From positions 30,112 through 94,111 of the forward strand of contig JAZUBS010000034.1 in NCBI GenBank assembly GCA_045638605.1: 64,000 nt of DNA, in the 5' to 3' direction. The notes below the pieces were generated by a model. The model was not told the origin of the DNA, searched no databases, and worked only from the letters and a program-made list of their open reading frames with translations. This DNA is from Candidatus Gastranaerophilaceae bacterium. GTDB taxonomy: Bacteria; Cyanobacteriota; Vampirovibrionia; Gastranaerophilales; Gastranaerophilaceae. The translations under genes were made by a program, and so were the position numbers. Positions within the stretch are counted from its first letter, which is position 1. The number at the start of each line of letters is the position of its first letter. This document shows positions 1,194 through 63,583 of this stretch, piece after piece.

Positions 1194-1313
1194 GTAGGGT
1201 GACTTTAGTCTACCTTTGCTTTTATATAGTTTCAAAGATATAAATTTTAAGAGAAACTGTAGAGTGCAATTTATTTTTTTATCCTTGTGGTGCGTCAAAA
1301 CGACGCGCCCTAC
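1194..1313. repeat. pair of GTAG-headed palindromic (REP-like) units
   Basis: GTAGGGTGACTTTAGTCTACC at 1194-1214. GGTGCGTCAAAACGACGCGCCCTAC at 1289-1313. Same unit types recur at 28.8, 29.1, 42.1, 43.2, 55.9, 56.2, 61.9 and 63.6 kb. Confidence 0.75.
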
Positions 1314-12849: not shown

Positions 12850-13560
12850 ATGTTATTGGGTGTAAATATTGATCACGTTGCTACATTAAGAAATGCTCGC
12901 GGAGGTGAAGAACCTAGCGTTATAGACGCAGCAATGATTTGCGAAAAAGCTGGCTGTCATGGCATAACAACACATTTAAGAGAAGATAGACGACATATTA
13001 AAGATAAAGATGTGAATGCGCTTAGACCAATTTTAAAAACTAGATTAAATTTAGAAATGGCAGCAACTGAAGAAATGCAAAAAATTGCACTAGAATTAAA
13101 ACCCAATAACTGCTGTATAGTTCCAGAAAGAAGAGAAGAGGTTACAACCGAAGGTGGACTTGAAGTTGCCGGTCAACTTGAAAAAATAACCCAATTTGTA
13201 ACGCCCTTAGTTGATGCTGGTATTATTGTAAGCCTATTTATTGCGCCAGATGAAGAACAAGTTAGAGCTTCTGCAAAAACAGGAGCCCAGTTTATAGAAC
13301 TTCATACAGGTTCTTATTCAAATGCTTATGGGACACAGAACGAAGAAGTTGAATTTAACAGACTTAAAAATGCAGCTAAATTAGCTCAAGAGTTGGGGCT
13401 TAAAGTTAACGCCGGACACGGATTAAATTATGAAAATGTCCACAGAATGCATGAAATTGAAGGATTGTATGAATTAAACATTGGTCATAGCATAATATCT
13501 CGTGCAATTTTTACAGGACTTGAAAAAGCCGTTGAAGAGATGAAAAACTTGATTGCATAA
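12850..13560 (+). CDS. pdxJ: pyridoxine 5'-phosphate synthase
   Basis: MLLGVNIDHVATLRNARGG...HLREDRRHI...NAGHGLNY. AGAGGA RBS 7 nt before the ATG at 12850. The ORF-track start at 12844 is a TTG with no spacing to the RBS. Confidence 0.93.
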   Translation: MLLGVNIDHVATLRNARGGEEPSVIDAAMICEKAGCHGITTHLREDRRHIKDKDVNALRPILKTRLNLEMAATEEMQKIALELKPNNCCIVPERREEVTTEGGLEVAGQLEKITQFVTPLVDAGIIVSLFIAPDEEQVRASAKTGAQFIELHTGSYSNAYGTQNEEVEFNRLKNAAKLAQELGLKVNAGHGLNYENVHRMHEIEGLYELNIGHSIISRAIFTGLEKAVEEMKNLIA

Positions 13561-13632
13561 ACATTTATACGGACCTCATTTTAAATTTTACATTAATTTT
13601 TTAATAAAATTGTAAAGATTGTAAATTTTTAC

Positions 13633-13669
13633 GCAATTTATTTGCACAAATTGTTTTTATATAGATAAG
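13633..13669 (+). promoter_or_regulatory. conserved promoter-like motif GCAATTT-N18-TATATAGATAAG (copy B)
   Basis: Same motif with an identical 25-nt offset from the GCAATTT start to the TATATA start at 28306 and 34580. It ends 29 nt before the ATG at 13699. Confidence 0.55.
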
Positions 13670-13698
13670 AAGTGTTAGTAAATTAGTGTGGAGAAACC

Positions 13699-14355
13699 AT
13701 GTCAGTAGCAGCGGTTACATCAGCGACAGCATTAGCAACAGCAGCAACAACAATGACAAAATCATTATGCTTTGTGGGAACTAATACCGACAAATTCAAA
13801 GATGGTCAATATGGCCGTGGCTTAGTCGCTATTGCTCAAGCCGCTAAAGCTGGTGAAGCATTTGCTCAAACAGATTTAGCCGGTGCCAATAAATTGCAAG
13901 CTGGCGTAGACCATTTAGGAAAAGCTGCAAAGACATCAAAAACGCTTTCAGCTTGTGGCAAAACACTTAAATGGCTTAAAGCTAACATTAACCCACTTAT
14001 AACCGTTTGTGTCGGTGCCAAAATTATAACATCTAAAAACAAAGAAGAAGCTTTATTTGAAGATGGCACAGGTTTAGGTTGTATGTTTGCTGGAGAAAAA
14101 GCATATAAGTCTTTAGCAAAAACAAACACTGCACAAAACATATTTCTAAAAACAGAAAAATATGGAAACAAGATATTTAAAGGAGTCAAAGGGGGAAAAG
14201 CTGGGAAAATTTGTGCTGGAATAATTGAAGGCTTAGGATTTGTTGCAGCATCAATAGGAGCTTATGCAGGAGGGGCTAAACTTGGAGGCGCAGTGTACGA
14301 TATTAAACAAGAAGCTAAGTTAAAAAAACAAGCTAATTTTAGGGCAATCTGCTAG
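13699..14355 (+). CDS. hypothetical Ala/Gly/Lys-rich protein
   Basis: GGAG RBS, 218 aa, preceded by the shared promoter-like motif. No family recognised. Confidence 0.6.
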   Translation: MSVAAVTSATALATAATTMTKSLCFVGTNTDKFKDGQYGRGLVAIAQAAKAGEAFAQTDLAGANKLQAGVDHLGKAAKTSKTLSACGKTLKWLKANINPLITVCVGAKIITSKNKEEALFEDGTGLGCMFAGEKAYKSLAKTNTAQNIFLKTEKYGNKIFKGVKGGKAGKICAGIIEGLGFVAASIGAYAGGAKLGGAVYDIKQEAKLKKQANFRAIC

Positions 14356-28203: not shown

Positions 28204-28305
28204 AAATATCTCCTTTTCTATAATAGTATTATTATCTCAAAAATTTACTTTTTATTCAAATTCTTATCTCATATTTGAATAAATGTAAATAAATTTTATT
28301 TTTGC

Positions 28306-28342
28306 GCAATTTTTATTTTAAAAAACACTTTATATAAATAAG
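28306..28342 (+). promoter_or_regulatory. conserved promoter-like motif GCAATTT-N18-TATATAAATAAG (copy A)
   Basis: Identical architecture to 13633 and 34580. It ends 19 nt before the ATG at 28362. Confidence 0.55.
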
Positions 28343-28724: not shown

Positions 28725-28751
28725 TTTTTAACTTCAATTCCTTTCAAAAGA

Positions 28752-28781
28752 AAAGTCGACTTAGCAATAAGTCGGCTTTTT
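28752..28781 (+). terminator. intrinsic terminator
   Basis: 11-bp stem AAAGTCGACTT/AAGTCGGCTTT (one G-U pair) with T residues at the 3' end. Confidence 0.65.
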
Positions 28782-28788
28782 AGTAAAA

Positions 28789-29150
28789 GTAGGGGGCGTC
28801 GTTTGACGCACCGCAAGAATGTAGAATTGGATGCAGTAATGGTAGGGTGCAATTTATTGCACCGCAAGGTCTTTTGCGCACCGCAAGGTCTTCACCGTCA
28901 TCCCGAACTCGTTTCGGGATTCCATGACGATGATGTCAACTAATTCAAGATTTTGGGATTAAATGGTTTTGTGGATTGTGCTCGGTTGGGATGTAGAAAC
29001 GAGTTTTGCCTGACAATTTTGATGAGGTTTGTTAGAGATGCCCAAACAAGTTCAGTATGACGATTTTGATGGGTCGGAGGGGAGTTTTAGTAGCAAATAG
29101 GTGAAATTTGTTGGGGTATATTTTGTGGTGCGTCAAACTACACACCCTAC
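28789..29150. repeat. composite repeat cluster bracketed by inverted REP-like units
   Basis: GTAGGGGGCGTCGTTTGACGCACC (28789-28812), GTAGGGTGCAATTTATTGCACC (28842-28863), direct GCACCGCAAGGTCTT x2 (28859-28873 and 28878-28892). Hairpin CGTCATCCCGAA..TTCGGGAT..ATGACG (28896-28929). AACAAGTTCAGTATGACG module (29044-29061, within 29040-29062). Closing unit GGTGCGTCAAACTACACACCCTAC (29127-29150). Confidence 0.75.
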
Positions 29151-34549: not shown

Positions 34550-34579
34550 GTTGATTTTTAATTTTTGTAAATTAATTAG

Positions 34580-34616
34580 GCAATTTTTCCGCTAAAAATG
34601 TTTTTATATAAATAAG
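34580..34616 (+). promoter_or_regulatory. conserved promoter-like motif GCAATTT-N18-TATATAAATAAG (copy C)
   Basis: Identical spacing to copies A and B. It ends 15 nt before the ATG at 34632. Confidence 0.55.
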
Positions 34617-40557: not shown

Positions 40558-41931
40558 CTATCTTGAACAAATAGTTCTTGCTGCATGGATACCCGATGCT
40601 GACGCTTGAATGAGTCCTCTTGTAACACCTGCGCCATCACCAATTGCAAACAAGTTTTTTACACCTTCTGTTTCTAGTTCATTAGTTAACTTAACTCTTG
40701 CTGAGTAGAATTTAACCTCTATACCATACAACAATGTATATCTTGAAGCGGTTCCAGGTGCGATTTTATCAAGCGCATAAATCATTTCTATGATACTTAA
40801 CATTTGACGATAAGGAATAACCAAGCTTAAATCTCCAGGTGTTGCACAAGTAAGCGTTGGTGTTATTATGCTTGATTTTATTCTCTCTGGAGTTGAGCGT
40901 CTACCTTCTAGCAAGTCACCAAATCTTTGAACAAGAACACCGCCCGCAAGCATATTTGCAAGACTTGCAACATGTTGACCGTATTGAATTGGCTCCTTAA
41001 ACGGTTCAGTAAATTTCTTACTCACAAGTAATGCAAAGTTTGTATTATTTGTTGTTTTTTCTGCATAACTATGACCATTTACGGTGGAAATTCCGTTGTA
41101 GTTTTCTTGTACAACTTCACCATTAGGATTCATACAGAATGTTCTAACTTCATCACCAAAAGTTGGCGAGTAGTAAACTAATTTTGATTCATAAAGTTTT
41201 GAAGTAAGTGGTTCAAAAACAGGAGCTGGAAGTTCAACACGAACACCAACATCCACTGCGTTGTTTACAAACCCAATTTTATTTTTATCAAATTCTTTTG
41301 TTAACCAATCAGCACCTTCTCTTCCTGGCGCAATAATTGTATATTCAGCACGGATTGTTTCACCATTATCTAAAACAATACCTTTTACTTGTTCACATTC
41401 TACAATCAAATTCTTAGCGCAAACATTGTTTATTATTGTAATTTTTTCATCAAGATAATCTTGCATTCCTTTCAGTACATCAAGACTTCTTTCCGTTCCA
41501 AGATGCCTTACCGGAGAATGAACAAGTTTTAGTTCAGCCAACGCTGCTTGTCTTTCAATTTCTTGGAAAACTTTTTTGTCTGTTCCAAAAACTTCATCTG
41601 TTGCGCCAAATTTTAAGTATAAATCATCCGCATATTTTATTAAATCTTCAACTTTTTCACGAGACATATAATCAATAAGATGCCCACCAACATCTGGAGT
41701 AAGAGTAAGTTTTCCATCAGAAAACGCACCGGCTCCGCCCCAGCCGCAAAGAAGTCCGCATTTTTTACAAGTTGGGCATTTTTCATAGCCTTCTCTTAAA
41801 AGGCATTTTCTTTTCTCAATTTTTTGTCCTTTTTCAATTAATACTACTTTCCAATCCGGTTTAAGTTTAGTAATTTCTAAAGCCGCAAAAATCCCAGCTG
41901 GACCAGCACCAATAATCGCTACGTTATACAT
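40558..41931 (-). CDS. FAD-dependent oxidoreductase (COG2509-like)
   Basis: N-terminal VAIIGAGPAGIFAA Rossmann motif, a CPTCKKCGLLCGWGGAG Cys cluster and C-terminal GDGAGVTRG. Confidence 0.8.
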   Translation of the reverse strand: MYNVAIIGAGPAGIFAALEITKLKPDWKVVLIEKGQKIEKRKCLLREGYEKCPTCKKCGLLCGWGGAGAFSDGKLTLTPDVGGHLIDYMSREKVEDLIKYADDLYLKFGATDEVFGTDKKVFQEIERQAALAELKLVHSPVRHLGTERSLDVLKGMQDYLDEKITIINNVCAKNLIVECEQVKGIVLDNGETIRAEYTIIAPGREGADWLTKEFDKNKIGFVNNAVDVGVRVELPAPVFEPLTSKLYESKLVYYSPTFGDEVRTFCMNPNGEVVQENYNGISTVNGHSYAEKTTNNTNFALLVSKKFTEPFKEPIQYGQHVASLANMLAGGVLVQRFGDLLEGRRSTPERIKSSIITPTLTCATPGDLSLVIPYRQMLSIIEMIYALDKIAPGTASRYTLLYGIEVKFYSARVKLTNELETEGVKNLFAIGDGAGVTRGLIQASASGIHAARTICSR

Positions 41932-42083: not shown

Positions 42084-42356
42084 AAATTATAATTTAGCGG
42101 TGTAAATAAAATCAAAAATTAGCAAACAGTAGGGTGCTGTCTTTAGACGCACCACAAGATTTGAAAAACAAACGGTGCGTCAAACGACGCACCCTACATA
42201 ACTGGCGTTGCCAGCATAAGTTGAAATACGTTATACTGCTAAATTATAATTTAGAATGTAGGGTAGACTAAAGTCTACCTTTATTTTTATATAATTTTTG
42301 AGCAGCTAAATTTTTCGCTAGATTAAAATCTACCTTACGTTCTACCCTACGTTCTG
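42084..42356 (+). repeat. modular repeat element, copy A, containing a REPIN-like inverted doublet
   Basis: AAATTATAATTTAGCGGTGTAAATAAAATCAAAAATTAGCAAACA, then GTAGGGTGCTGTCTTTAGACGCACC (42129-42153), a 20-nt spacer and GGTGCGTCAAACGACGCACCCTAC (42174-42197). Further modules follow. Near-identical to 61880-62027 and inverted at 43196-43313. Confidence 0.85.
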
Positions 42357-42992: not shown

Positions 42993-43195
42993 AAAAAGGT
43001 CCTTTCGTTTTTCATGAAAAAATGTATTTTTACTATTATATACGCAAGAAAACATGAAAAGATTTATAATTGCTAATAAAATAAAATAAAACAAAATAAA
43101 ATTTGTATAATTCAGTGGGGGCTTGAAAAATTTACATTTACAATTTGTAACAAAATTTGCTCAAATTCCAATTATGATTTAATTGGAATTTAGTA

Positions 43196-43313
43196 ATGTA
43201 GAACGTAGGGTAGATTTTCATCTACCACAAAATTTAGTAATGTAGGGTGCGTCTATAGACAGCGCCCTACTGTTTGCCAATTTTTGATTTTATTTACACC
43301 CCTAAATTATAAT
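43196..43313 (-). repeat. modular repeat element, copy C (inverted, shorter)
   Basis: The reverse complement reads AATTATAATTTAGGGGTGTAAATAAAATCAAAAATTGGCAAACAGTAGGGCGCTGTCTATAGACGCACCCTAC...GGTAGATGAAAATCTACCCTACGTTCTAC. It is collinear with copies A and B. Confidence 0.85.
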
Positions 43314-43353
43314 TCAATATAAATCAAAATCAAAAATTCAATTAAATTAAAAA

Positions 43354-43383
43354 AACCGACAATTTTTTATATTGCCGGTTTTT
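43354..43383 (-). terminator. intrinsic terminator of yebC
   Basis: On the minus strand: AACCGGCAAT-loop-ATTGTCGGTT (one G-U pair) followed by a T-run. Confidence 0.75.
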
Positions 43384-43402
43384 ACTTAATCTTTTATAAG
43401 AA

Positions 43403-44149
43403 TTAACCGATTTTTTCTGCTAATTCATCATCTATATCAACGTTAGAATAAACATTTTGAACATCATCATGTTCTTCAAGTTTTTCTAACAATAATAAGA
43501 TTTTTTTAGCCGTTGCTTCATCAGTAATTTCTAAATCATTTTCAGGCAATCTTGTTAAATCAGCACTTACACTTTTAAAGCCTTCAGCTTCAAGTCCTTC
43601 AAAAACAGATTGGAAATTTTCAACAGAAGTTATTACTCTGTATTCTTCTTCATCTTCTTCAATATCATCAGCACCAAAATTGATGGCTGCTTCAAACAAT
43701 TTCTCATAATCAGTGCTTAAATCAAAGGTAAGAAGCCCTACAGGTTTAAACATCCAGCCAACACACCCAGTTTCGCCTAAGTTGCCGCCATATTTTGTGA
43801 AATAACTTCTAATATCACCAGCAGTGCGGTTTCTGTTATCTGTCATTGCTTCAATAAAAATAGCAACTCCGCCAGCGCCGTATCCTTCGTAAGTTAACTC
43901 TTCATAGTTATCTTGGTTTGATGCACCAGAACCTTTTTCTATAGCTCTTTTAATATTATCTGCTGGAAGTCCTGCTGCTTTTGCCCTATCTATTGCGGTT
44001 TTAAGACGAAAATTTGCACTTGGATCAGGTCCACCCATTTTTGATGCGACCATTAATTCTCTTGAAAATTTTTGAAATTCCGCAGCTCTTGCTGAATCTA
44101 CTTTTGCTTTTTTACGTTTAATTGTTGACCATTTTGAGTGTCCTGACAT
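43403..44149 (-). CDS. yebC: YebC/PmpR-family transcriptional regulator
   Basis: MSGHSKWSTIKRKKA..., 248 aa, with the full-length family pattern. Confidence 0.95.
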   Translation of the reverse strand: MSGHSKWSTIKRKKAKVDSARAAEFQKFSRELMVASKMGGPDPSANFRLKTAIDRAKAAGLPADNIKRAIEKGSGASNQDNYEELTYEGYGAGGVAIFIEAMTDNRNRTAGDIRSYFTKYGGNLGETGCVGWMFKPVGLLTFDLSTDYEKLFEAAINFGADDIEEDEEEYRVITSVENFQSVFEGLEAEGFKSVSADLTRLPENDLEITDEATAKKILLLLEKLEEHDDVQNVYSNVDIDDELAEKIG

Positions 44150-50131: not shown

Positions 50132-51202
50132 TTATAAACTCATAACCTTTAAAATATCATCAAGGTTTGAAGATGTCTTTTTAACATCAGCACCTGAATA
50201 TTTAATTGCGCTATCTGGGTCTTTTAATCCATTACCTGTTAAAATACAAACAATTTGTTTGTTATCTTCAATAAGACCTAATTTTTTAGCTTTAATTACG
50301 CCTGCAACACTAGCCGCAGATGCTGGTTCCGCCAACACTCCTTCTGTTTTTGCAAGCAATTTATATGCTTCAATAATTTCGTCATCACTAACAAAATTAA
50401 TCACGCCACCGCTTTTATCTCTAGCATTTTCAGCTTTTTCCCAGCTTGCAGGGTTTCCAATACGAATAGCCGTTGCAATAGTTTCGGGTTTCATAATTCT
50501 TTCACCTTTAACGATTGCAGCCGCACCTTCTGCTTCAAAGCCCATCATTTTAGGCAATTTTTTCGCTTTTCCTTGCTCAAAATATTCTTCATAACCTTTC
50601 CAGTATGCTGTAATATTGCCCGCATTACCAACAGGAATAAAATGGTAATCAGGCGCATCACCTAAAGCTTCTACGATTTCAAAAGCGCCTGTTTTTTGAC
50701 CTTCAATTCTATATGGGTTTACAGAATTTACCAATTTTACAGGATATTTTTCAGAAATTTCTCTAACAACTTCTAATGCTTCATCAAAGTTGCCATCAAT
50801 AGCAATAATTTCAGCTCCATACATCATAGCTTGAGAAAGCTTACCTAATGCAATGTATCCATCAGGGATTAAAACAAAAGTTCTCATTCCAGCTTTTGCG
50901 CCATATGCAGCGGCAGCCGCTGAAGTATTTCCAGTAGAGGCGCAAATAATCGCTTTTGCGCCTTCTTCTGCTGCTTTTGAAACAGCCATTGTCATACCTC
51001 TATCTTTAAAACTTCCTGTGGGGTTCAAACCCTCAAGTTTTAAATAAATTTCTCCATTATACCCGATTTCTTTTGCAAGATTTTCTGCTTTAACTAATGG
51101 TGTATTACCCTCATTTAACGTTACAACAGGTGTTGCTTCTGTTACTGGAAGATTTGCTCTATATTTATTTATTAATCCTTGATAATGTTTTTCTGTGCTC
51201 AT
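50132..51202 (-). CDS. thrC: threonine synthase
   Basis: PLP Lys motif [23 protein letters not shown], 356 aa. Directly downstream of hom. Confidence 0.92.
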
Positions 51203-55915: not shown

Positions 55916-56260
55916 GTAGGGTACGTCATTGCCAATATCGTAGACGAAGAAATGTGCCGTACGAAAGAGCAAAATCAGGCGGGCGAGCCCCCCCATTCAA
56001 AGCGTCTTGAAATTCCTTATCGCTCAGAAGTTTCGCCTAATGCCATCCGTGCAAGCAGGCTCATTTTCTTCGCTTACCAAACTAATGTTCGTCTGGAATT
56101 TCGCAAAACCACATTTTTGCATAGCGCTTGTATTTCAAGAGAGATATGCAGCCAGCTAGAAGTTTTATTTGAGCATAGCGAAAACTACAATTCTGCGTGC
56201 ATACTTTGACTCACCTATTATTTTTTTAATCTTGAGGGGCGTCAAAACGACCCACCCTAC
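55916..56260. repeat. REP-bracketed GC-elevated non-coding insert
   Basis: GTAGGGTACGTC at 55916 and GAGGGGCGTCAAAACGACCCACCCTAC ending at 56260 are inverted relative to each other. The ~300-bp interior is visibly more GC-rich than its surroundings and has no convincing ORF. Confidence 0.6.
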
Positions 56261-56396
56261 CTTACTGCAAAGTATACATCATTTGACAAGCCAAAAGATT
56301 TAGACTATAAACTTTAACTTACTCACTTTTACCAAAACGCAAATAAAAAGACGTTCCTAAAAATTAGAAACGTCTTTAAATATTTTAAACAAAAGC

Positions 56397-59347: not shown

Positions 59348-61762
59348 TTATTTATCTGATTTTATTCTCATACCGTAGAATGAGCGGTAAACAAAGAATA
59401 ACGCTACAAAGAAGAACACTGTGCCTACATAAGGCGCATATTCTTTAAAGCTTTCTGAAATAGCGATTTCCATAGCTAACAAACCAAACAATGTTGTAAA
59501 TTTAATAATTGGGTTCATCGCAACGGAAGAAGTATCTTTAAATGGGTCTCCCACTGTATCACCAACAACTGTTGCTTCATGCAAAAGAGTTCCTTTTTCA
59601 GCTAAATCAACTTCAACTATTTTTTTACCGTTATCCCAACATCCGCCTGCGTTTGCCATAAATACAGCTTGGAACAAACCAAATACAGCAATTGCAATCA
59701 AATAGCTTACAAAGAACGCAACTGGTTCATTTGAGCCAACAGGAGCTGAGAAAAACGCAAACGCTAACGCAAATGAGAACAATGCTATAAAGATATTAAG
59801 CATACCTGATTGCGCATATTGTGTACAAATTTTTACAACTTCTTTTGAGTGTTCTGTTGCAGCTGTAGCAGAACTATTATCATCAAGATTAATATGTTCT
59901 TTAATGTATTTTACAGCTCTGTATGCACCAGTTGTAACTGCTTGCATTGAGCTTCCTGTAAACCAATAAATAACCGCTCCACCTAAGATAAATCCTAGAA
60001 TAGTATATGGGTTAAGCAAGTTCAAAATAGCTTCTGGCTGAATCCCCAAAGTATCTCTAATTACCAAGATTAATGAGAAAATCATTGTTGTTGCACCAAC
60101 AACAGCTGTTCCAATTAATACTGGTTTAGATGTTGCTTTAAAGGTGTTTCCAGCACCATCATTAGCTTCTAATAATTTTTTAGCTTTATCAAATTTAGGT
60201 TCAAAACCAAAATCATTTTCAATTTGTTTATCAATTCCTTCGATATTTTCAATCAAAGATAATTCATAAACAGATTGAGCGTTATCGGTAACTGGCCCAT
60301 AACTGTCTACTGCAATTGTAATTGGACCCATTCCCAAAAATCCAAATGCCACCAAACCAAATGCAAAGACAGATGCATAAACCATTAATTCTGATGGGAT
60401 ATAAAGGCTTGCAAAATAAGCAACAGCCATCAATACAACGATTGTTAAACCAATCCAAAAACCAGAGAAGTTACCAGCAACTAAACCGGAAAGAATAGTT
60501 AATGAAGAACCACCTTCACGAGATGCTGTAACAACTTCTTGTGTATGTCTTGCTTTTGTACTTGTGAATACTTTTGTAAATTCAGGAATTAACGCTGCAC
60601 CCAAAGTACCACAAGAAATAATTACTGACATAATTAACCATAAGTTATTACCCATAGAACCTAATTGCCAATAGCTTACGCCAAATGTCATAATGATTGA
60701 CAAGATTGATGTTATCCAAATTAAAGAAGTCAATGGAGCTTCAAAATCCATATCTTCAACTTTTGAATATTTAAATTTACCAATAATATCGTTAACTTTG
60801 TAAGCGATTACAGAAGTAACAATCATTAAGAATCTCATTGTGAAAATCCAAGTTAACAAAGGAATTCTTGATTCTTCTGATACCCCTAACAAAATGAAAC
60901 TAACAAGAGCAACACCGGTTACCCCATAAGTTTCAAATCCATCTGCAGTTGGTCCAATAGAATCGCCCGCATTGTCGCCTGTGCAGTCTGCAATTACGCC
61001 TGGGTTTCTTGGATCATCTTCTTTGATGTTGAATTGAACTTTCATCAAGTCAGAACCAATATCAGCAATTTTAGTAAATATTCCACCAGCTACACGCAAA
61101 GCTGATGCACCTAATGATTCACCAATTGCAAATCCGATAAAACAAGCGCCAGCTAAATGTCCAGGAACAAAAAGCAAAATTGTAAGCATCAAAATCAACT
61201 CAACACTTACAAGAATTACACCAATGCTCATACCAACTTGAAGAGGTATTCCTAAAATATCATAAGGTTTTCCTTTTAGTGCAACGAAAGCTGTTCTTGA
61301 GTTTGCCAAAGTATTCATTCTAATACCATACCAAGCAACCCCATAAGAGCCTAAAATACCGATTACAGACCAAGCCAAAATCATTAATACGCCTTTTGCG
61401 TCAAGGTCTTGTAATACACCAAAGTAAAAACCAATACAAATCGCTATTAATACTTCTAATAATACTAAGAATTTACCTTGTTGAACAAGATAAGTTTTAC
61501 AAGTTTCAAAAATCAAATTACCAACCATTAGCATTGATTTATGTGCTTTAATATTTTTTACATTAAAGTATTGAATAATACCAATGATAATACCCAAAGC
61601 ACTGATTACAATACCAGCTACTAGTAGATTATAGCTGTCTTGATGCGCTGCAAATGATGGAACAACTAAGTCTGCTTCTCCTGCCAAAGCTGGCATTGTT
61701 GAAAAAAGCAGGGTACTTAGCATAGCAAACATTGCAAACACAAAATTTTTCAAATGTTTCAT
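59348..61762 (-). CDS. hppA: membrane-bound proton/sodium-translocating pyrophosphatase
   Basis: 804 aa, polytopic. Motifs: GDNAGDSIGPTADGFETY, DNVGDN-like ADCTGDNAGD, GDTVGDPFKDTSSVAMNPIIKF. Confidence 0.95.
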   Translation of the reverse strand: MKHLKNFVFAMFAMLSTLLFSTMPALAGEADLVVPSFAAHQDSYNLLVAGIVISALGIIIGIIQYFNVKNIKAHKSMLMVGNLIFETCKTYLVQQGKFLVLLEVLIAICIGFYFGVLQDLDAKGVLMILAWSVIGILGSYGVAWYGIRMNTLANSRTAFVALKGKPYDILGIPLQVGMSIGVILVSVELILMLTILLFVPGHLAGACFIGFAIGESLGASALRVAGGIFTKIADIGSDLMKVQFNIKEDDPRNPGVIADCTGDNAGDSIGPTADGFETYGVTGVALVSFILLGVSEESRIPLLTWIFTMRFLMIVTSVIAYKVNDIIGKFKYSKVEDMDFEAPLTSLIWITSILSIIMTFGVSYWQLGSMGNNLWLIMSVIISCGTLGAALIPEFTKVFTSTKARHTQEVVTASREGGSSLTILSGLVAGNFSGFWIGLTIVVLMAVAYFASLYIPSELMVYASVFAFGLVAFGFLGMGPITIAVDSYGPVTDNAQSVYELSLIENIEGIDKQIENDFGFEPKFDKAKKLLEANDGAGNTFKATSKPVLIGTAVVGATTMIFSLILVIRDTLGIQPEAILNLLNPYTILGFILGGAVIYWFTGSSMQAVTTGAYRAVKYIKEHINLDDNSSATAATEHSKEVVKICTQYAQSGMLNIFIALFSFALAFAFFSAPVGSNEPVAFFVSYLIAIAVFGLFQAVFMANAGGCWDNGKKIVEVDLAEKGTLLHEATVVGDTVGDPFKDTSSVAMNPIIKFTTLFGLLAMEIAISESFKEYAPYVGTVFFFVALFFVYRSFYGMRIKSDK

Positions 61763-61879: not shown

Positions 61880-62027
61880 AAATTATAATTTAGCGGTGTA
61901 AATAAAATCAAAAATTAGCAAACAGTAGGGTGCTGTCTTTAGCCGCACCACAAGATTTGAAAAATAATCGGTGCGTCAAAACGACGCACCCTACATAACT
62001 AAATTTTTCGCTAGATTAAAATCTTCC
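61880..62027 (+). repeat. modular repeat element, copy B, with REPIN-like doublet
   Basis: Near-identical to 42084 onward. Units at 61925-61949 and 61970-61994 are separated by 20 nt. It lacks the ~105-bp module inserted in copy A after CTACATAACT. Confidence 0.85.
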
Positions 62028-62110
62028 CTACGTTCTGGTATAATTGCAACCCTCTACACACGAAGTCAATTGCGACTTTATGTTTTTAAATCTGACATTT
62101 CTTGGCGAAA

Positions 62111-62780: not shown

Positions 62781-62864
62781 TAGAATAGAAATCCCTATGA
62801 CAATTTATAAAGTTCATTTGTTTTGTATAAATGTAAACTATGAAAAATGCGAAAGGGAAAAGTT

Positions 62865-63515
62865 ATGTGCAATAATGTAGTTATGCGTCCGACAAGTAGG
62901 GCTTTAGCTGAATTACGTTCGGCAATGAATAAGGCCGCAACCGCCGTTAAGACAAGTCCACGACGTGATAAATTAACTGATATTTTAAATGAAATAAGTC
63001 TTAGAACAAATCCAATTTCTGAAAAAAATCGTGAACTTATTGAATATAGCCGATATAATGGGCAGTTAGTGCGCACATCAAGACGCTTGTACACAAAGCA
63101 AGAAATGTTAGACCTGTTTGCATACGAAAAACAGCGCTTATCAGGAATCATTGAGGATCTGAGCAAAGAGCGTACTGAGTTGAAAGAAGAATTAAAAAGA
63201 TGGCATAGTATGATAGATCGTATTAAACTTGAGGGCGTAGATGCAAATTTAGCGTTTGCTAGTTCTTGTTTGGCTAAACTAAAAAGTTTGGATATCAATA
63301 AAGTACCTAAAATCGGTAAGTTTTATGATTATCATCATAACTCAGAAAATGTCTTTTATCGATCAGTTTCAAAAGAGGAAGTTTTAAAGATGTTGTCTCC
63401 TTCTGATGCAAAAGTTTATAAAATAGCGTGCGAAAAAGGTGTTGATTGGGATACCGCTGTTAATATGGCTAATGATATTGCTAATAATAAAAAACCTTGG
63501 TGGCGTTTTTGGTAA
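62865..63515 (+). CDS. hypothetical coiled-coil protein ending in KKPWWRFW
   Basis: AGGGA RBS 6 nt before the ATG at 62865 (the in-frame ATG at 62847 lacks an RBS). Natural K/E/L-rich composition, unlike the S/L/R/F-rich antisense ORF 62795..63298. Confidence 0.6.
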   Translation: MCNNVVMRPTSRALAELRSAMNKAATAVKTSPRRDKLTDILNEISLRTNPISEKNRELIEYSRYNGQLVRTSRRLYTKQEMLDLFAYEKQRLSGIIEDLSKERTELKEELKRWHSMIDRIKLEGVDANLAFASSCLAKLKSLDINKVPKIGKFYDYHHNSENVFYRSVSKEEVLKMLSPSDAKVYKIACEKGVDWDTAVNMANDIANNKKPWWRFW

Positions 63516-63559
63516 TTTTGAAGGTTGAGTGAAACCCAATAAATTATGAATTTAGAATG

Positions 63560-63583
63560 AAAGGTAGACTTTGGTCTACCTTT
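63560..63583 (+). terminator. REP-family hairpin acting as a likely terminator
   Basis: Perfect 10-bp stem AAAGGTAGAC/GTCTACCTTT, loop TTTG, followed by GCTATTTTTATT. Same module as 42258 and 1201. Confidence 0.6.

Follow-up and report, generated by a model that had tools for sequence, protein, structure and literature searches.

What are the GC-rich, GTAG-headed hairpins that recur between the genes of an AT-rich gut bacterium, and how did they come to be there? The question is raised by a 64,000-nt stretch of Candidatus Gastranaerophilaceae DNA (contig JAZUBS010000034.1, positions 30,112 to 94,111), here called the window and numbered from its own first base. An earlier note, made from the letters of the window, had proposed a system analogous to the repetitive extragenic palindromes (REPs) and inverted REP doublets (REPINs) of other bacteria. 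Our analysis leads us to a probability of about 80% that the hairpins are GTAG-tagged repeats of the REP/REPIN type, whose copies are mobilized by a REP-associated tyrosine transposase (RAYT) encoded elsewhere in the genome.

GTAG-headed hairpins form a multi-copy intergenic family

The window has 32% GC overall and ~28-36% GC across 2-kb bins. Its 64 kb hold ~17 GTAG-headed GC-rich hairpins, which are grouped in seven intergenic clusters at ~1.2, 28.8-29.15, 42.1-42.35, 43.2-43.3, 55.9-56.3, 61.9-62.0, and 63.56 kb. Three classes were distinguished: T1, GTAGGGTGCGTC-N4-5-GACGCACC; T2, GTAGGGTAGAC-N4-GTCTACC; and T3, GTAGGGTGCAAT-N3-ATTGCACC. The units have a stem of 7-8 bp and a loop of 4-5 nt, and their folds as single-stranded DNA have z-scores of -3.4 to -7.3 against shuffled sequences. 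The heptamer GTAGGGT was observed 14 times in the window compared with 2.3 expected, and none of 100 shuffles reached 14; GGTGCGTC with at most one mismatch was observed 38 times (8.4 expected), and the 24-nt full motif with at most three mismatches four times (0.00 expected). A generic hairpin finder, set to sites where GTAG precedes a GC-rich hairpin, detected 14 of them, compared with 4.0 in Markov-1 simulations. All nine GTAGGG-type sites lie in the 16% of the window outside long open reading frames (ORFs). The five finder sites within coding sequences are unrelated to the family and occur at about the chance rate, and no family member is found inside genes. Rfam at gathering thresholds, applied to the whole window, returned tRNA-Cys alone and no known RNA family at the repeats.

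Most units in the window carry GTAG/CTAC on one side only. The palindrome at 43242-43270 is tagged on both sides, and the tag is mutated in the unit at 63559-63580 (GAAA head) and in a remnant at 42317-42338 (CTTAC). Among 100 T1 hairpins from 76 related low-GC loci, 87 are tagged on one side, 3 on both, and 10 on neither. The units are therefore REPs: short stem-loop palindromes with a one-sided GTAG tag, present in multiple extragenic copies within 64 kb. They are arranged as singlets, as inverted doublets with GTAG outside (REPIN-like), and as mixed clusters resembling bacterial interspersed mosaic elements (BIMEs); with regard to pairs, the window contains two tight doublets, two wide GTAG-outside pairs, one single palindrome, and one degenerate pair. 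The clusters at 42085-42355 and 61881-62036 combine T1(+), T1(-), T2(+), and T2(-) units in alternating orientation, with linkers in common (repeat families D6 and I3), and this mixture of classes is a BIME pattern.

Hairpins of the GTAG-headed form given in the earlier note are present at every position that it listed, although three of its units need reassignment: 28842-28863 belongs to the third class, 55916 is a degenerate 5' half, and 43242-43270 is a palindrome with both GTAG and CTAC ends. Its sister type ending in GTCTACC holds at 1194, 42258, and 43205 and, with a GAAA in place of the GTAG head, at 63559-63580. The intergenic restriction that it wished to see examined is borne out within the window by the nine GTAGGG-type units, and the two doublets that it described as facing each other across a conserved 20-nt spacer, at 42129-42197 and 61925-61994, do so, as set out below.

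Two doublets lie in a larger composite element

The doublets are part of a longer repeat. Positions 42084-42184 and 61880-61980 are 97% identical, and an inverted copy lies at 43246-43317. When the three copies of the window are aligned with same-species contigs, the borders of the composite fall at AATTATAATTTAG … CTACAT(A/T)ACT, giving a length of 119 nt. An arm of 44 nt, which is asymmetric, comes first; a T1 unit whose GTAG is on the left, a spacer of 20 nt, and a second T1 unit, whose CTAC is on the right, come after it. The two spacers, ACAAGATTTGAAAAACAAAC and ACAAGATTTGAAAAATAATC, are alike at 18 of 20 positions. As single-stranded DNA each doublet takes the form of a single long hairpin instead of two short ones, with -21.6 kcal/mol (z = -7.3) at 42129-42197 and -17.4 kcal/mol (z = -5.1) at 61925-61994. 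Inverted REPs, a short conserved spacer, and a single-hairpin fold give both doublets the geometry of REPINs. The single form at 43242-43270, a complete GTAG…CTAC palindrome, corresponds to the doublet minus the stretch between two direct GACGCACC octamers. Since the 97% identity extends over 101 nt amid otherwise unrelated intergenic DNA, the two composite copies point to recent copying. Neighboring T1 units in the 76 related loci form 19 pairs, comprising 6 with GTAG outside, 2 with GTAG inside, 4 in the same orientation, and 7 that include an untagged unit.

The 44-nt arm also carries TTGATT-N18-TATAAT facing outward, at 42086-42115 (-), 61882-61911 (-), and 43284-43313 (+). In two copies out of three it is directed at the gene that comes next, facing the start of ORF 40558-41931 and of the pyrophosphatase gene 59348-61762. 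Elsewhere, GTAGGGTTTGGTTTTAACCGAACC, a REP of a fourth class (T4), pairs with T1 in heterodimers that have GTAG outside and a spacing of 11-13 nt (L035:258-1916, L088:4222-4283, and L096:3404-3465, where L numbers denote loci from other genomes and metagenomes); the heterodimer recurs three times in L035, ~800 nt apart.

The T1 repeat is found in several phyla

Species-representative GTDB genomes were scanned for GGTGCGTC-N3-6-GACGCACCCTAC. Exact T1 copies are present in at least 117 GTDB genome stretches, and among the matches listed the hosts are mostly Planctomycetota. Other hosts among the matches listed are Anaerolineae/Chloroflexi, cyanobacteria (Lyngbya, Floridaenema), and Lysobacterales and other Pseudomonadota. 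Metagenome-assembled genomes (MAGs) labeled Candidatus Gastranaerophilales contain exact copies as well, and so do low-GC 'RUG' genomes from rumen; RUG14326 (CADBUY01) has classes T1, T2, and T3 in common with the window. A metagenome scan with low-GC loop variants yielded 64 further stretches, mostly of 27-39% GC. Across phyla of 27-69% GC, T1 is identical at all 20 of its specified bases, whereas the RAYTs described below are only ~43% identical.

Gastranaerophilales are placed in Candidatus Melainabacteria, within the Cyanobacteriota/Melainabacteria group. The YebC protein encoded in the window (43403-44149) has a graded series of homologs, among them one, at 75% identity, that bears the name Candidatus Gastranaerophilaceae. 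Protein similarity and the repeats in common make Gastranaerophilales the most likely source of the window. Exact-protein look-ups with the FAD-dependent (GidA-like) protein of the window and with ORF 1588-2121 returned no record.

The repeat brackets RAYT genes in related genomes

An all-against-all BLAST of the ORFs from the 117 loci revealed a small RAYT cluster as the sole family tied to the motif, besides ABC ATPases and other generic families. A ~195-aa ORF is bracketed by two inverted units in one planctomycete locus (L019) and adjoined by one unit in another (L002), and both ORFs have weak matches to Pfam Y1_Tnp, the IS200-like family. RAYT genes were found by tblastn in 4 of the 64 metagenome stretches. 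The layout in L173 is GTAGGGTGCGTCGTTTGACGCACC, 25 nt, a 175-aa ORF, 24 nt, and GGTGCGTCAAAACGACGCACCCTAC, and L186 and L188 are laid out in the same way. In both low-GC rumen-type metagenome contigs and Planctomycetota MAGs there are RAYT ORFs of 175-195 aa with a T1 hairpin at both ends, and the flanking T1 units have GTAG outside, in the orientation of the window doublets.

The ORFs score 140-185 bits with the NCBIfam model NF047646, 'REP-associated tyrosine transposase' (cutoff 80), and 31-43 bits with the IS200 model, under its 55-bit cutoff. In the PDB they match only E. coli TnpA-REP (4ER8, E = 8e-24), and the HUH (LPDHIH) and YIHYNP tyrosine motifs are aligned. By homology, the repeat-flanked ORFs are RAYTs and not classical IS200 TnpA proteins. 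In L173 and L195, the RAYTs have no tnpB-like ORF next to them.

A homology search gave 1254 relatives. Among them, the RAYT homolog P0227 bears the name Candidatus Gastranaerophilaceae, and P0170 (locus L195) seems to lie on one 254-kb contig together with a YebC that has 76% identity to that of the window. The RAYT of L195 is bracketed by its own REP, GTAGGGTGCGG-ATTTAA-CCGCACC (tip …GG-ATTTAA-CC…), and the RAYT of L194 by GTAGGGTGCGT-CACA-CGCACC (tip …T-CACA-…). Both keep the GTAGGGTGCG start and differ at the stem tip. Because the two stems differ and each flanks its own RAYT, the REP co-varies with the RAYT lineage, as has been described for Stenotrophomonas (PMC2817692). RAYT genes bracketed by REPs, the arrangement known as a REPtron, are therefore present in the related genomes L173, L186, L194, L195, and L019.

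Some candidate links were dropped. The ~350-nt REP-bounded stretches of the window (28813-29126 and 55940-56235) were rejected as decayed RAYTs, the best E value of a tblastn with six RAYT proteins being 0.05. A link between the L194 RAYT and a YebC 99% identical to that of the window was abandoned, as the L194 contig is without YebC. A 211-aa ORF beside YebC in L122 was rejected as a RAYT, since it is pilin-like (N_methyl); it occupies L122:10801-11436, and other relatives lack it at this site. The fourth of the RAYT-bearing metagenome stretches, L168:6528-7022 (contig Ga0247611_10002145), has a T1 unit, GGTGCGTCAAAACGACGCACCCTAC, in frame inside a RAYT ORF, where it encodes …DGASKRRTLQ…; a REP has been inserted there into what is presumed to be its own transposase gene, leaving the reading frame unbroken.

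Repeat sites differ between strains and relatives

Contigs of the same species were recognized by an identical YebC or an identical 120-aa protein together with identical flanks. The identical YebC and 120-aa proteins come from samples ERZ27318250, ERZ28594964, ERZ1767608, and ERZ27317339. Downstream of YebC (3'), the window has the single palindrome, whereas L118 and L119 have a doublet, each followed by different downstream sequence. Each of the contigs L118-L120 either stops within the repeat or shortly beyond it, or runs on from it into different downstream sequence. At L118:1016-1159, the REP doublet on the side of YebC, which is identical to that of the window, is joined to sequence corresponding to window positions 62041-62101. 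This junction is consistent with an 18.6-kb inversion between the inverted REP clusters at 43.2 and 61.9 kb, or with an assembly chimera. Window segment 28789-29126 is replaced in L200-L202 by ~345 nt of unrelated sequence between identical flanks; the replacement encodes a 94-aa ORF without a Pfam match, and its right junction falls inside a T1 unit. On these alignments, REP copies are not fixed at orthologous sites.

More distant contigs, encoding proteins 94-100% identical to the YebC or pyrophosphatase of the window, have DNA of 72-94% identity over aligned segments and are heavily rearranged. The ~81 kb of non-redundant sequence from relatives at 77-94% nucleotide identity contains no GTAGGG-type unit, compared with about nine clusters expected at the density of the window.

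The genes of window 13.7-23.5 kb come after YebC in L122-L129, indicating an inversion of ~13.6-43.3 kb with breakpoint regions 13560-13700 and 43100-43400. A REP cluster lies at the 43.3-kb breakpoint alone, the relatives have 72-81% DNA identity over the segments aligned there, and we do not claim a REP-mediated origin for this inversion. The site 3' of YebC in these relatives (L123:10775-10830) has a different palindrome, AACTAAAACCCTAAAAC…GTTTTAGGGTTTTAGTT.

Map of the repeat units

The units and composites of the window are collected in Table 1.

Table 1. Positions of REP units, pairs, and composite elements in the window
Feature	Position	Strand	Remarks
T2 unit GTAGGGTGACTTTAGTCTACC	1194-1214	+	GTAG head, hairpin minus one base; direct-repeat family D7; blastn match to 42254-42297
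Degenerate GTAG-outside pair	1260-1313	.	Repeat D2/I5
Decayed T3-like unit GTAGAGTGCAATTTATT	from 1260	+	First member of degenerate pair
T1 unit GGTGCGTCAAAACGACGCGCCCTAC	1289-1313	-	Second member of degenerate pair
362-nt REP-bounded element	28789-29150	.	Arms form inverted repeat I8
T1 unit	28789-28812	+	Left bound of 362-nt element
T3 unit GTAGGGTGCAATTTATTGCACC	28842-28863	+	Stem GGTGCAAT/ATTGCACC
T1 unit (decayed)	29127-29150	-	Right bound of 362-nt element
119-nt composite element with doublet of the earlier note	42085-42203	+	Borders from alignment with same-species contigs
Parts of 42085-42203			44-nt arm 42085-42128; T1(+) 42129-42153; 20-nt spacer; T1(-) 42174-42197; tail ATAACT
T2 unit GTAGGGTAGACTAAAGTCTACC	42258-42279	+	Also scores as terminator-like, from T-rich tail
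Inverted, partly decayed T2-type units and linker (…GCTAGATTAAAATCTACCTTAC GTTCTACCCTAC…)	42306-42355	-	Family D6, 95% identity to 61999-62036
T2 unit GTAGGGTAGATTTTCATCTACC	43205-43226	+	In inverted repeat I3 with 61983-62036
Inverted composite, single-hairpin form	43242-43317	-	Inverted repeats I1 and I2 at 92-94%
Parts of 43242-43317			Palindrome GTAGGGTGCGTCTATAGACAGCGCCCTAC 43242-43270; arm 43271-43317; fold -8.8 kcal/mol, z = -4.5
345-nt stretch bounded by T1 units	55916-56260	.	Interior without RAYT similarity; 85-aa ORF without Pfam match
Degenerate T1 half GTAGGGTACGTC	55916	+	5' half alone
T1 unit GGGGCGTCAAAACGACCCACCCTAC	56236-56260	-	Right bound of 345-nt stretch
Second composite copy	61881-62000	+	Arm; T1(+) 61925-61949; 20-nt spacer; T1(-) 61970-61994; ATAACT tail
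T2-type unit GCTAGATTAAAATCTTCCCTAC	62010-62031	-	Families D6 and I3
T2-like hairpin GAAAGGTAGACTTTGGTCTACC	63559-63580	+	Head mutated to GAAA; T-rich tail; directly 3' of ORF 62847-63515; D7, 86%

Other repeats and hairpins occur in the window. A second small repeat, AAACAAGTTCAG(C/T)ATGACG…, adjoins REP units at 1321-1350, 28997-29026, and 29044-29073, as does a hairpin, CATCCCGAACTCGTTTCGGGATTCC, at 28895-28925. At 50934-50963, inside ORF 50132-51202, there is another hairpin with a GTAG head; its GC-rich stem has 10 bp (GTAGAGGCGCAAATAATCGCTTTTGCGCCT), and its sequence is unrelated to the REP classes. The motif TT(A/G)(C/G)GCAATTT…AAAA(T/C)…TTTATATA(G/A)ATAAG is found at 13629-13669, 28302-28342, and 34576-34616, ~20-70 nt 5' of three start codons, and again 5' of the orthologous ORF in relatives (L122:11520-11560); it may be a shared promoter or operator.

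Mobile repeats, relics, or host elements

We propose that a RAYT (TnpA-REP), a single-strand DNA nuclease-ligase of the HUH/Y1 type whose gene lies in another part of the genome, would act in trans on the hairpin folded in single-stranded DNA. It would recognize the GTAG head and the stem, cleave nearby, and rejoin the DNA, and by this route single REP units as well as composites, the 119-nt arm-doublet for example, would be copied into new intergenic sites. The dispersed copies would then provide short homologies that drive recombination, including single-to-doublet conversion, segment replacement, and inversions. The RAYT mechanism is established for enzymes of E. coli, S. maltophilia, and Marinomonas (PMC8266576, PMC3479197). 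The proposal of the earlier note of a REP/REPIN-analogous system gains support from the T1 units at both ends of RAYT genes in related genomes. The comparisons that it called for gave concordant answers: the motif is not confined to the window but extends to at least 117 GTDB and 64 metagenome stretches, a Y1-transposase-like gene flanked by the units exists in the low-GC relatives L173, L186, L188, L194, and L195, and copies vary in presence, with none in the ~81 kb from relatives and differences at REP sites among same-species contigs. The stricter idea that the doublet is the mobile unit gains only partial support, since singlets preponderate in the related low-GC loci.

Several observations weigh against mobilization by a resident RAYT. 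As the earlier note had stated, the 64-kb window has no RAYT gene or remnant detectable by tblastn with the six RAYT proteins. The RAYT and YebC of L195 appear to be on one contig, and the two genes were not seen in one locus. L173, L186, and L188 are placed in the order of the window, provisionally, by GC content and common REP classes alone. That the doublet is the replicator is not demonstrated, because most T1 units in the 76 related loci are singlets, and no target-site signature or cleavage dinucleotide was definable from the three composite copies. The nearest sampled relatives are without the repeats, and therefore the genome of the window could carry a relic population, from which the RAYT has been lost and in which copies no longer transpose, but decay and take part in homologous recombination only. 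Such a relic has a small though real chance of being the right explanation. It accords with the missing RAYT, with the decayed units at 55916, 1260, 29127, 63559 (GAAA head), and 42306-42355, and with the repeat-free ~81 kb of the relatives, but not with the persisting 97% identity of the two composite copies and the several perfect units, nor with the RAYTs flanked by the identical REP in several low-GC contigs. RAYTs are usually single-copy, as Bertels reportedly found in 2017, and the genome is much larger than the window, so the absence of one from 64 kb is to be expected.

Repetition could also have arisen through selection for function, not mobility, if the hairpins were host regulatory modules acting as terminators, mRNA stabilizers, or terminator-plus-promoter insulators. 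The T1 hairpin 42193-42174 on the minus strand, with the T-rich spacer, does score as terminator-like; T-rich tails follow the T2 units at 42260 and 63559, of which the latter lies directly after the end of ORF 62847-63515; and the TTGATT-N18-TATAAT of the arm is directed at the starts of 40558-41931 and 59348-61762. Of the units, only the T2 units at 1194 and 63559 are in sense orientation directly 3' of a gene. However, promoter-like matches are at background in this AT-rich window (11 found, 8.9 expected), and units occur in either orientation whatever the gene direction. Canonical intrinsic terminators lie between gene ends and REPs at 28750-28785, 43351-43383, and 56340-56375, and because these genuine terminators precede the REPs at three sites, the T1 hairpins are probably not needed as terminators. 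A host function also fits poorly with an identical 24-nt sequence that recurs in phyla of 27-69% GC and flanks RAYT genes, and with the lack of the sites in regions orthologous between the window and relatives. As the primary explanation, regulation and nothing else is unlikely. Co-option of the 119-nt composite is possible, because one strand reads a terminator-like hairpin and then TTGATT-N18-TATAAT facing the next gene. Finally, the units might be miniature derivatives of ordinary, palindrome-associated IS200/IS605 elements, moved by a classical multi-copy TnpA, possibly with TnpB, and not by a RAYT. The Pfam Y1_Tnp matches of the flanking ORFs would suit this origin, and the ~350-nt stretches bounded by GTAG-hairpin and hairpin-CTAC resemble internally deleted elements, yet the interiors of these stretches have no transposase similarity. 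The superior RAYT equivalog scores, the TnpA-REP structure as sole PDB match, the lack of a neighboring tnpB-like ORF in the two loci named above, and the GTAG head, which is a hallmark of REPs (PMC3733652, PMC8266576), together make it very improbable.

REP/REPIN-type repeats moved by a RAYT remain our preferred reading, and a bolder extension of it is advanced only tentatively, as doubtful in itself. The T1 REP (GTAG plus GGTGCGTC/GACGCACC) and its RAYT might form one ancient or horizontally spreading clade in which the recognition sequence has stayed constant over 20 of 20 bases in Planctomycetota, Chloroflexota, Cyanobacteria, Melainabacteria, and Gammaproteobacteria, with the copies of gut Melainabacteria acting as strain-level hot spots. 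If true, this would imply very strong protein-DNA co-constraint or transfer of REPtrons between phyla, it would contradict the vertical inheritance that is generally accepted for REPIN-RAYT systems, and the gut Melainabacteria copies would be hot spots of segment replacement and inversion between strains.

Comparison with known REP systems

The closest parallels are the Group 3-type REPtrons, for example, that of Stenotrophomonas maltophilia, whose 23-nt REP has an 8-bp perfect palindrome and a 3-nt loop and is accompanied by TnpA-REP (PMC8266576). The T1 system is similar in its GTAG head, perfect 8-bp GC-rich stem, short loop, and RAYT between two inverted REPs, and the repeat-flanked proteins have a predicted HUH motif and catalytic tyrosine like those of S. 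maltophilia TnpA-REP. It differs in its host, an AT-rich (32% GC) melainabacterium and not a gammaproteobacterium, in its 4-5-nt loop, and in being known here from sequence. Among the REPs tabulated by Nunvar et al. 2010 (PMC2817692, Table 1) are those of Haemophilus parasuis, GTAGGGTGGGTCTTGACCCACC, and H. influenzae, GTAGGGTGGGCTT(c/t)AGCCCACC, which share the GTAGGGTG start and overall architecture of T1. T1 differs from the H. parasuis REP by essentially one compensated stem pair (GGTGCGTC/GACGCACC versus GGTGGGTC/GACCCACC), and the window copy at 56236 carries GACCCACC, as in H. parasuis. Phylum, loop, and copy organization are different from those of the Haemophilus REPs.

The doublets resemble two published arrangements, the Pseudomonas fluorescens SBW25 REPINs (PMC3116915) and the 'HH dimers' formed by GTAG repeats (PMC3733652; Di Nocera et al. 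2013), in having inverted REPs with GTAG outside, a conserved spacer, a fold as one long hairpin, and the orientation of the REPs around the RAYT. Unlike them, they have only a 20-nt spacer and an asymmetric 44-nt arm that is copied along, and doublets do not clearly outnumber singlets in the related loci. The clusters at 42085-42355 and 61881-62036, with T1, T2, and T3 mixed in alternating orientation and joined by conserved linkers, are comparable to E. coli BIMEs, which are mosaics of REP classes Y and Z with conserved linkers; both the bracketing of RAYT genes by REPs and the association with BIMEs have been described (PMC2817692). The E. coli REPs differ from T1-T3 in their bulged stem (group 2), and the BIME partners there are IHF, gyrase, and Pol I.

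GTAG REPs and GTAG-outside dimers with conserved spacers are known in Cyanobacteria, Chloroflexi, and the PVC group, and the GTAG-15 and GTAG-16 families occur in the cyanobacteria Anabaena, Nostoc, and Cyanothece (PMC3733652). The latter are GTAG-tagged REPs like those of the window and belong to the sister phylum; GGTGCG is missing from the supplementary files of that paper (Di Nocera 2013). When the literature was searched for the string GTAGGGTGCG, it gave unrelated primer matches only, and no paper linking REP or RAYT to Melainabacteria or Gastranaerophilales was found in the literature searched.

The repeats thus represent a known kind of selfish DNA and no new kind of element. Less routine are the identity of T1 across phyla despite RAYT divergence and the strain-level structural variation at REP sites. 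Nearly all work on REP/RAYT systems has concerned Proteobacteria, and the present case extends this pairing of a domesticated transposase with a repeat to a sister lineage of Cyanobacteria that is AT-rich and occurs in gut and rumen. It offers an explanation for the breaks and rearrangements of metagenome assemblies at REP sites (L118-L120) and makes these sites natural strain markers, and a REP that is near-invariant across phyla provides a tractable case for studying the conservation or transfer of RAYT-REP specificity.

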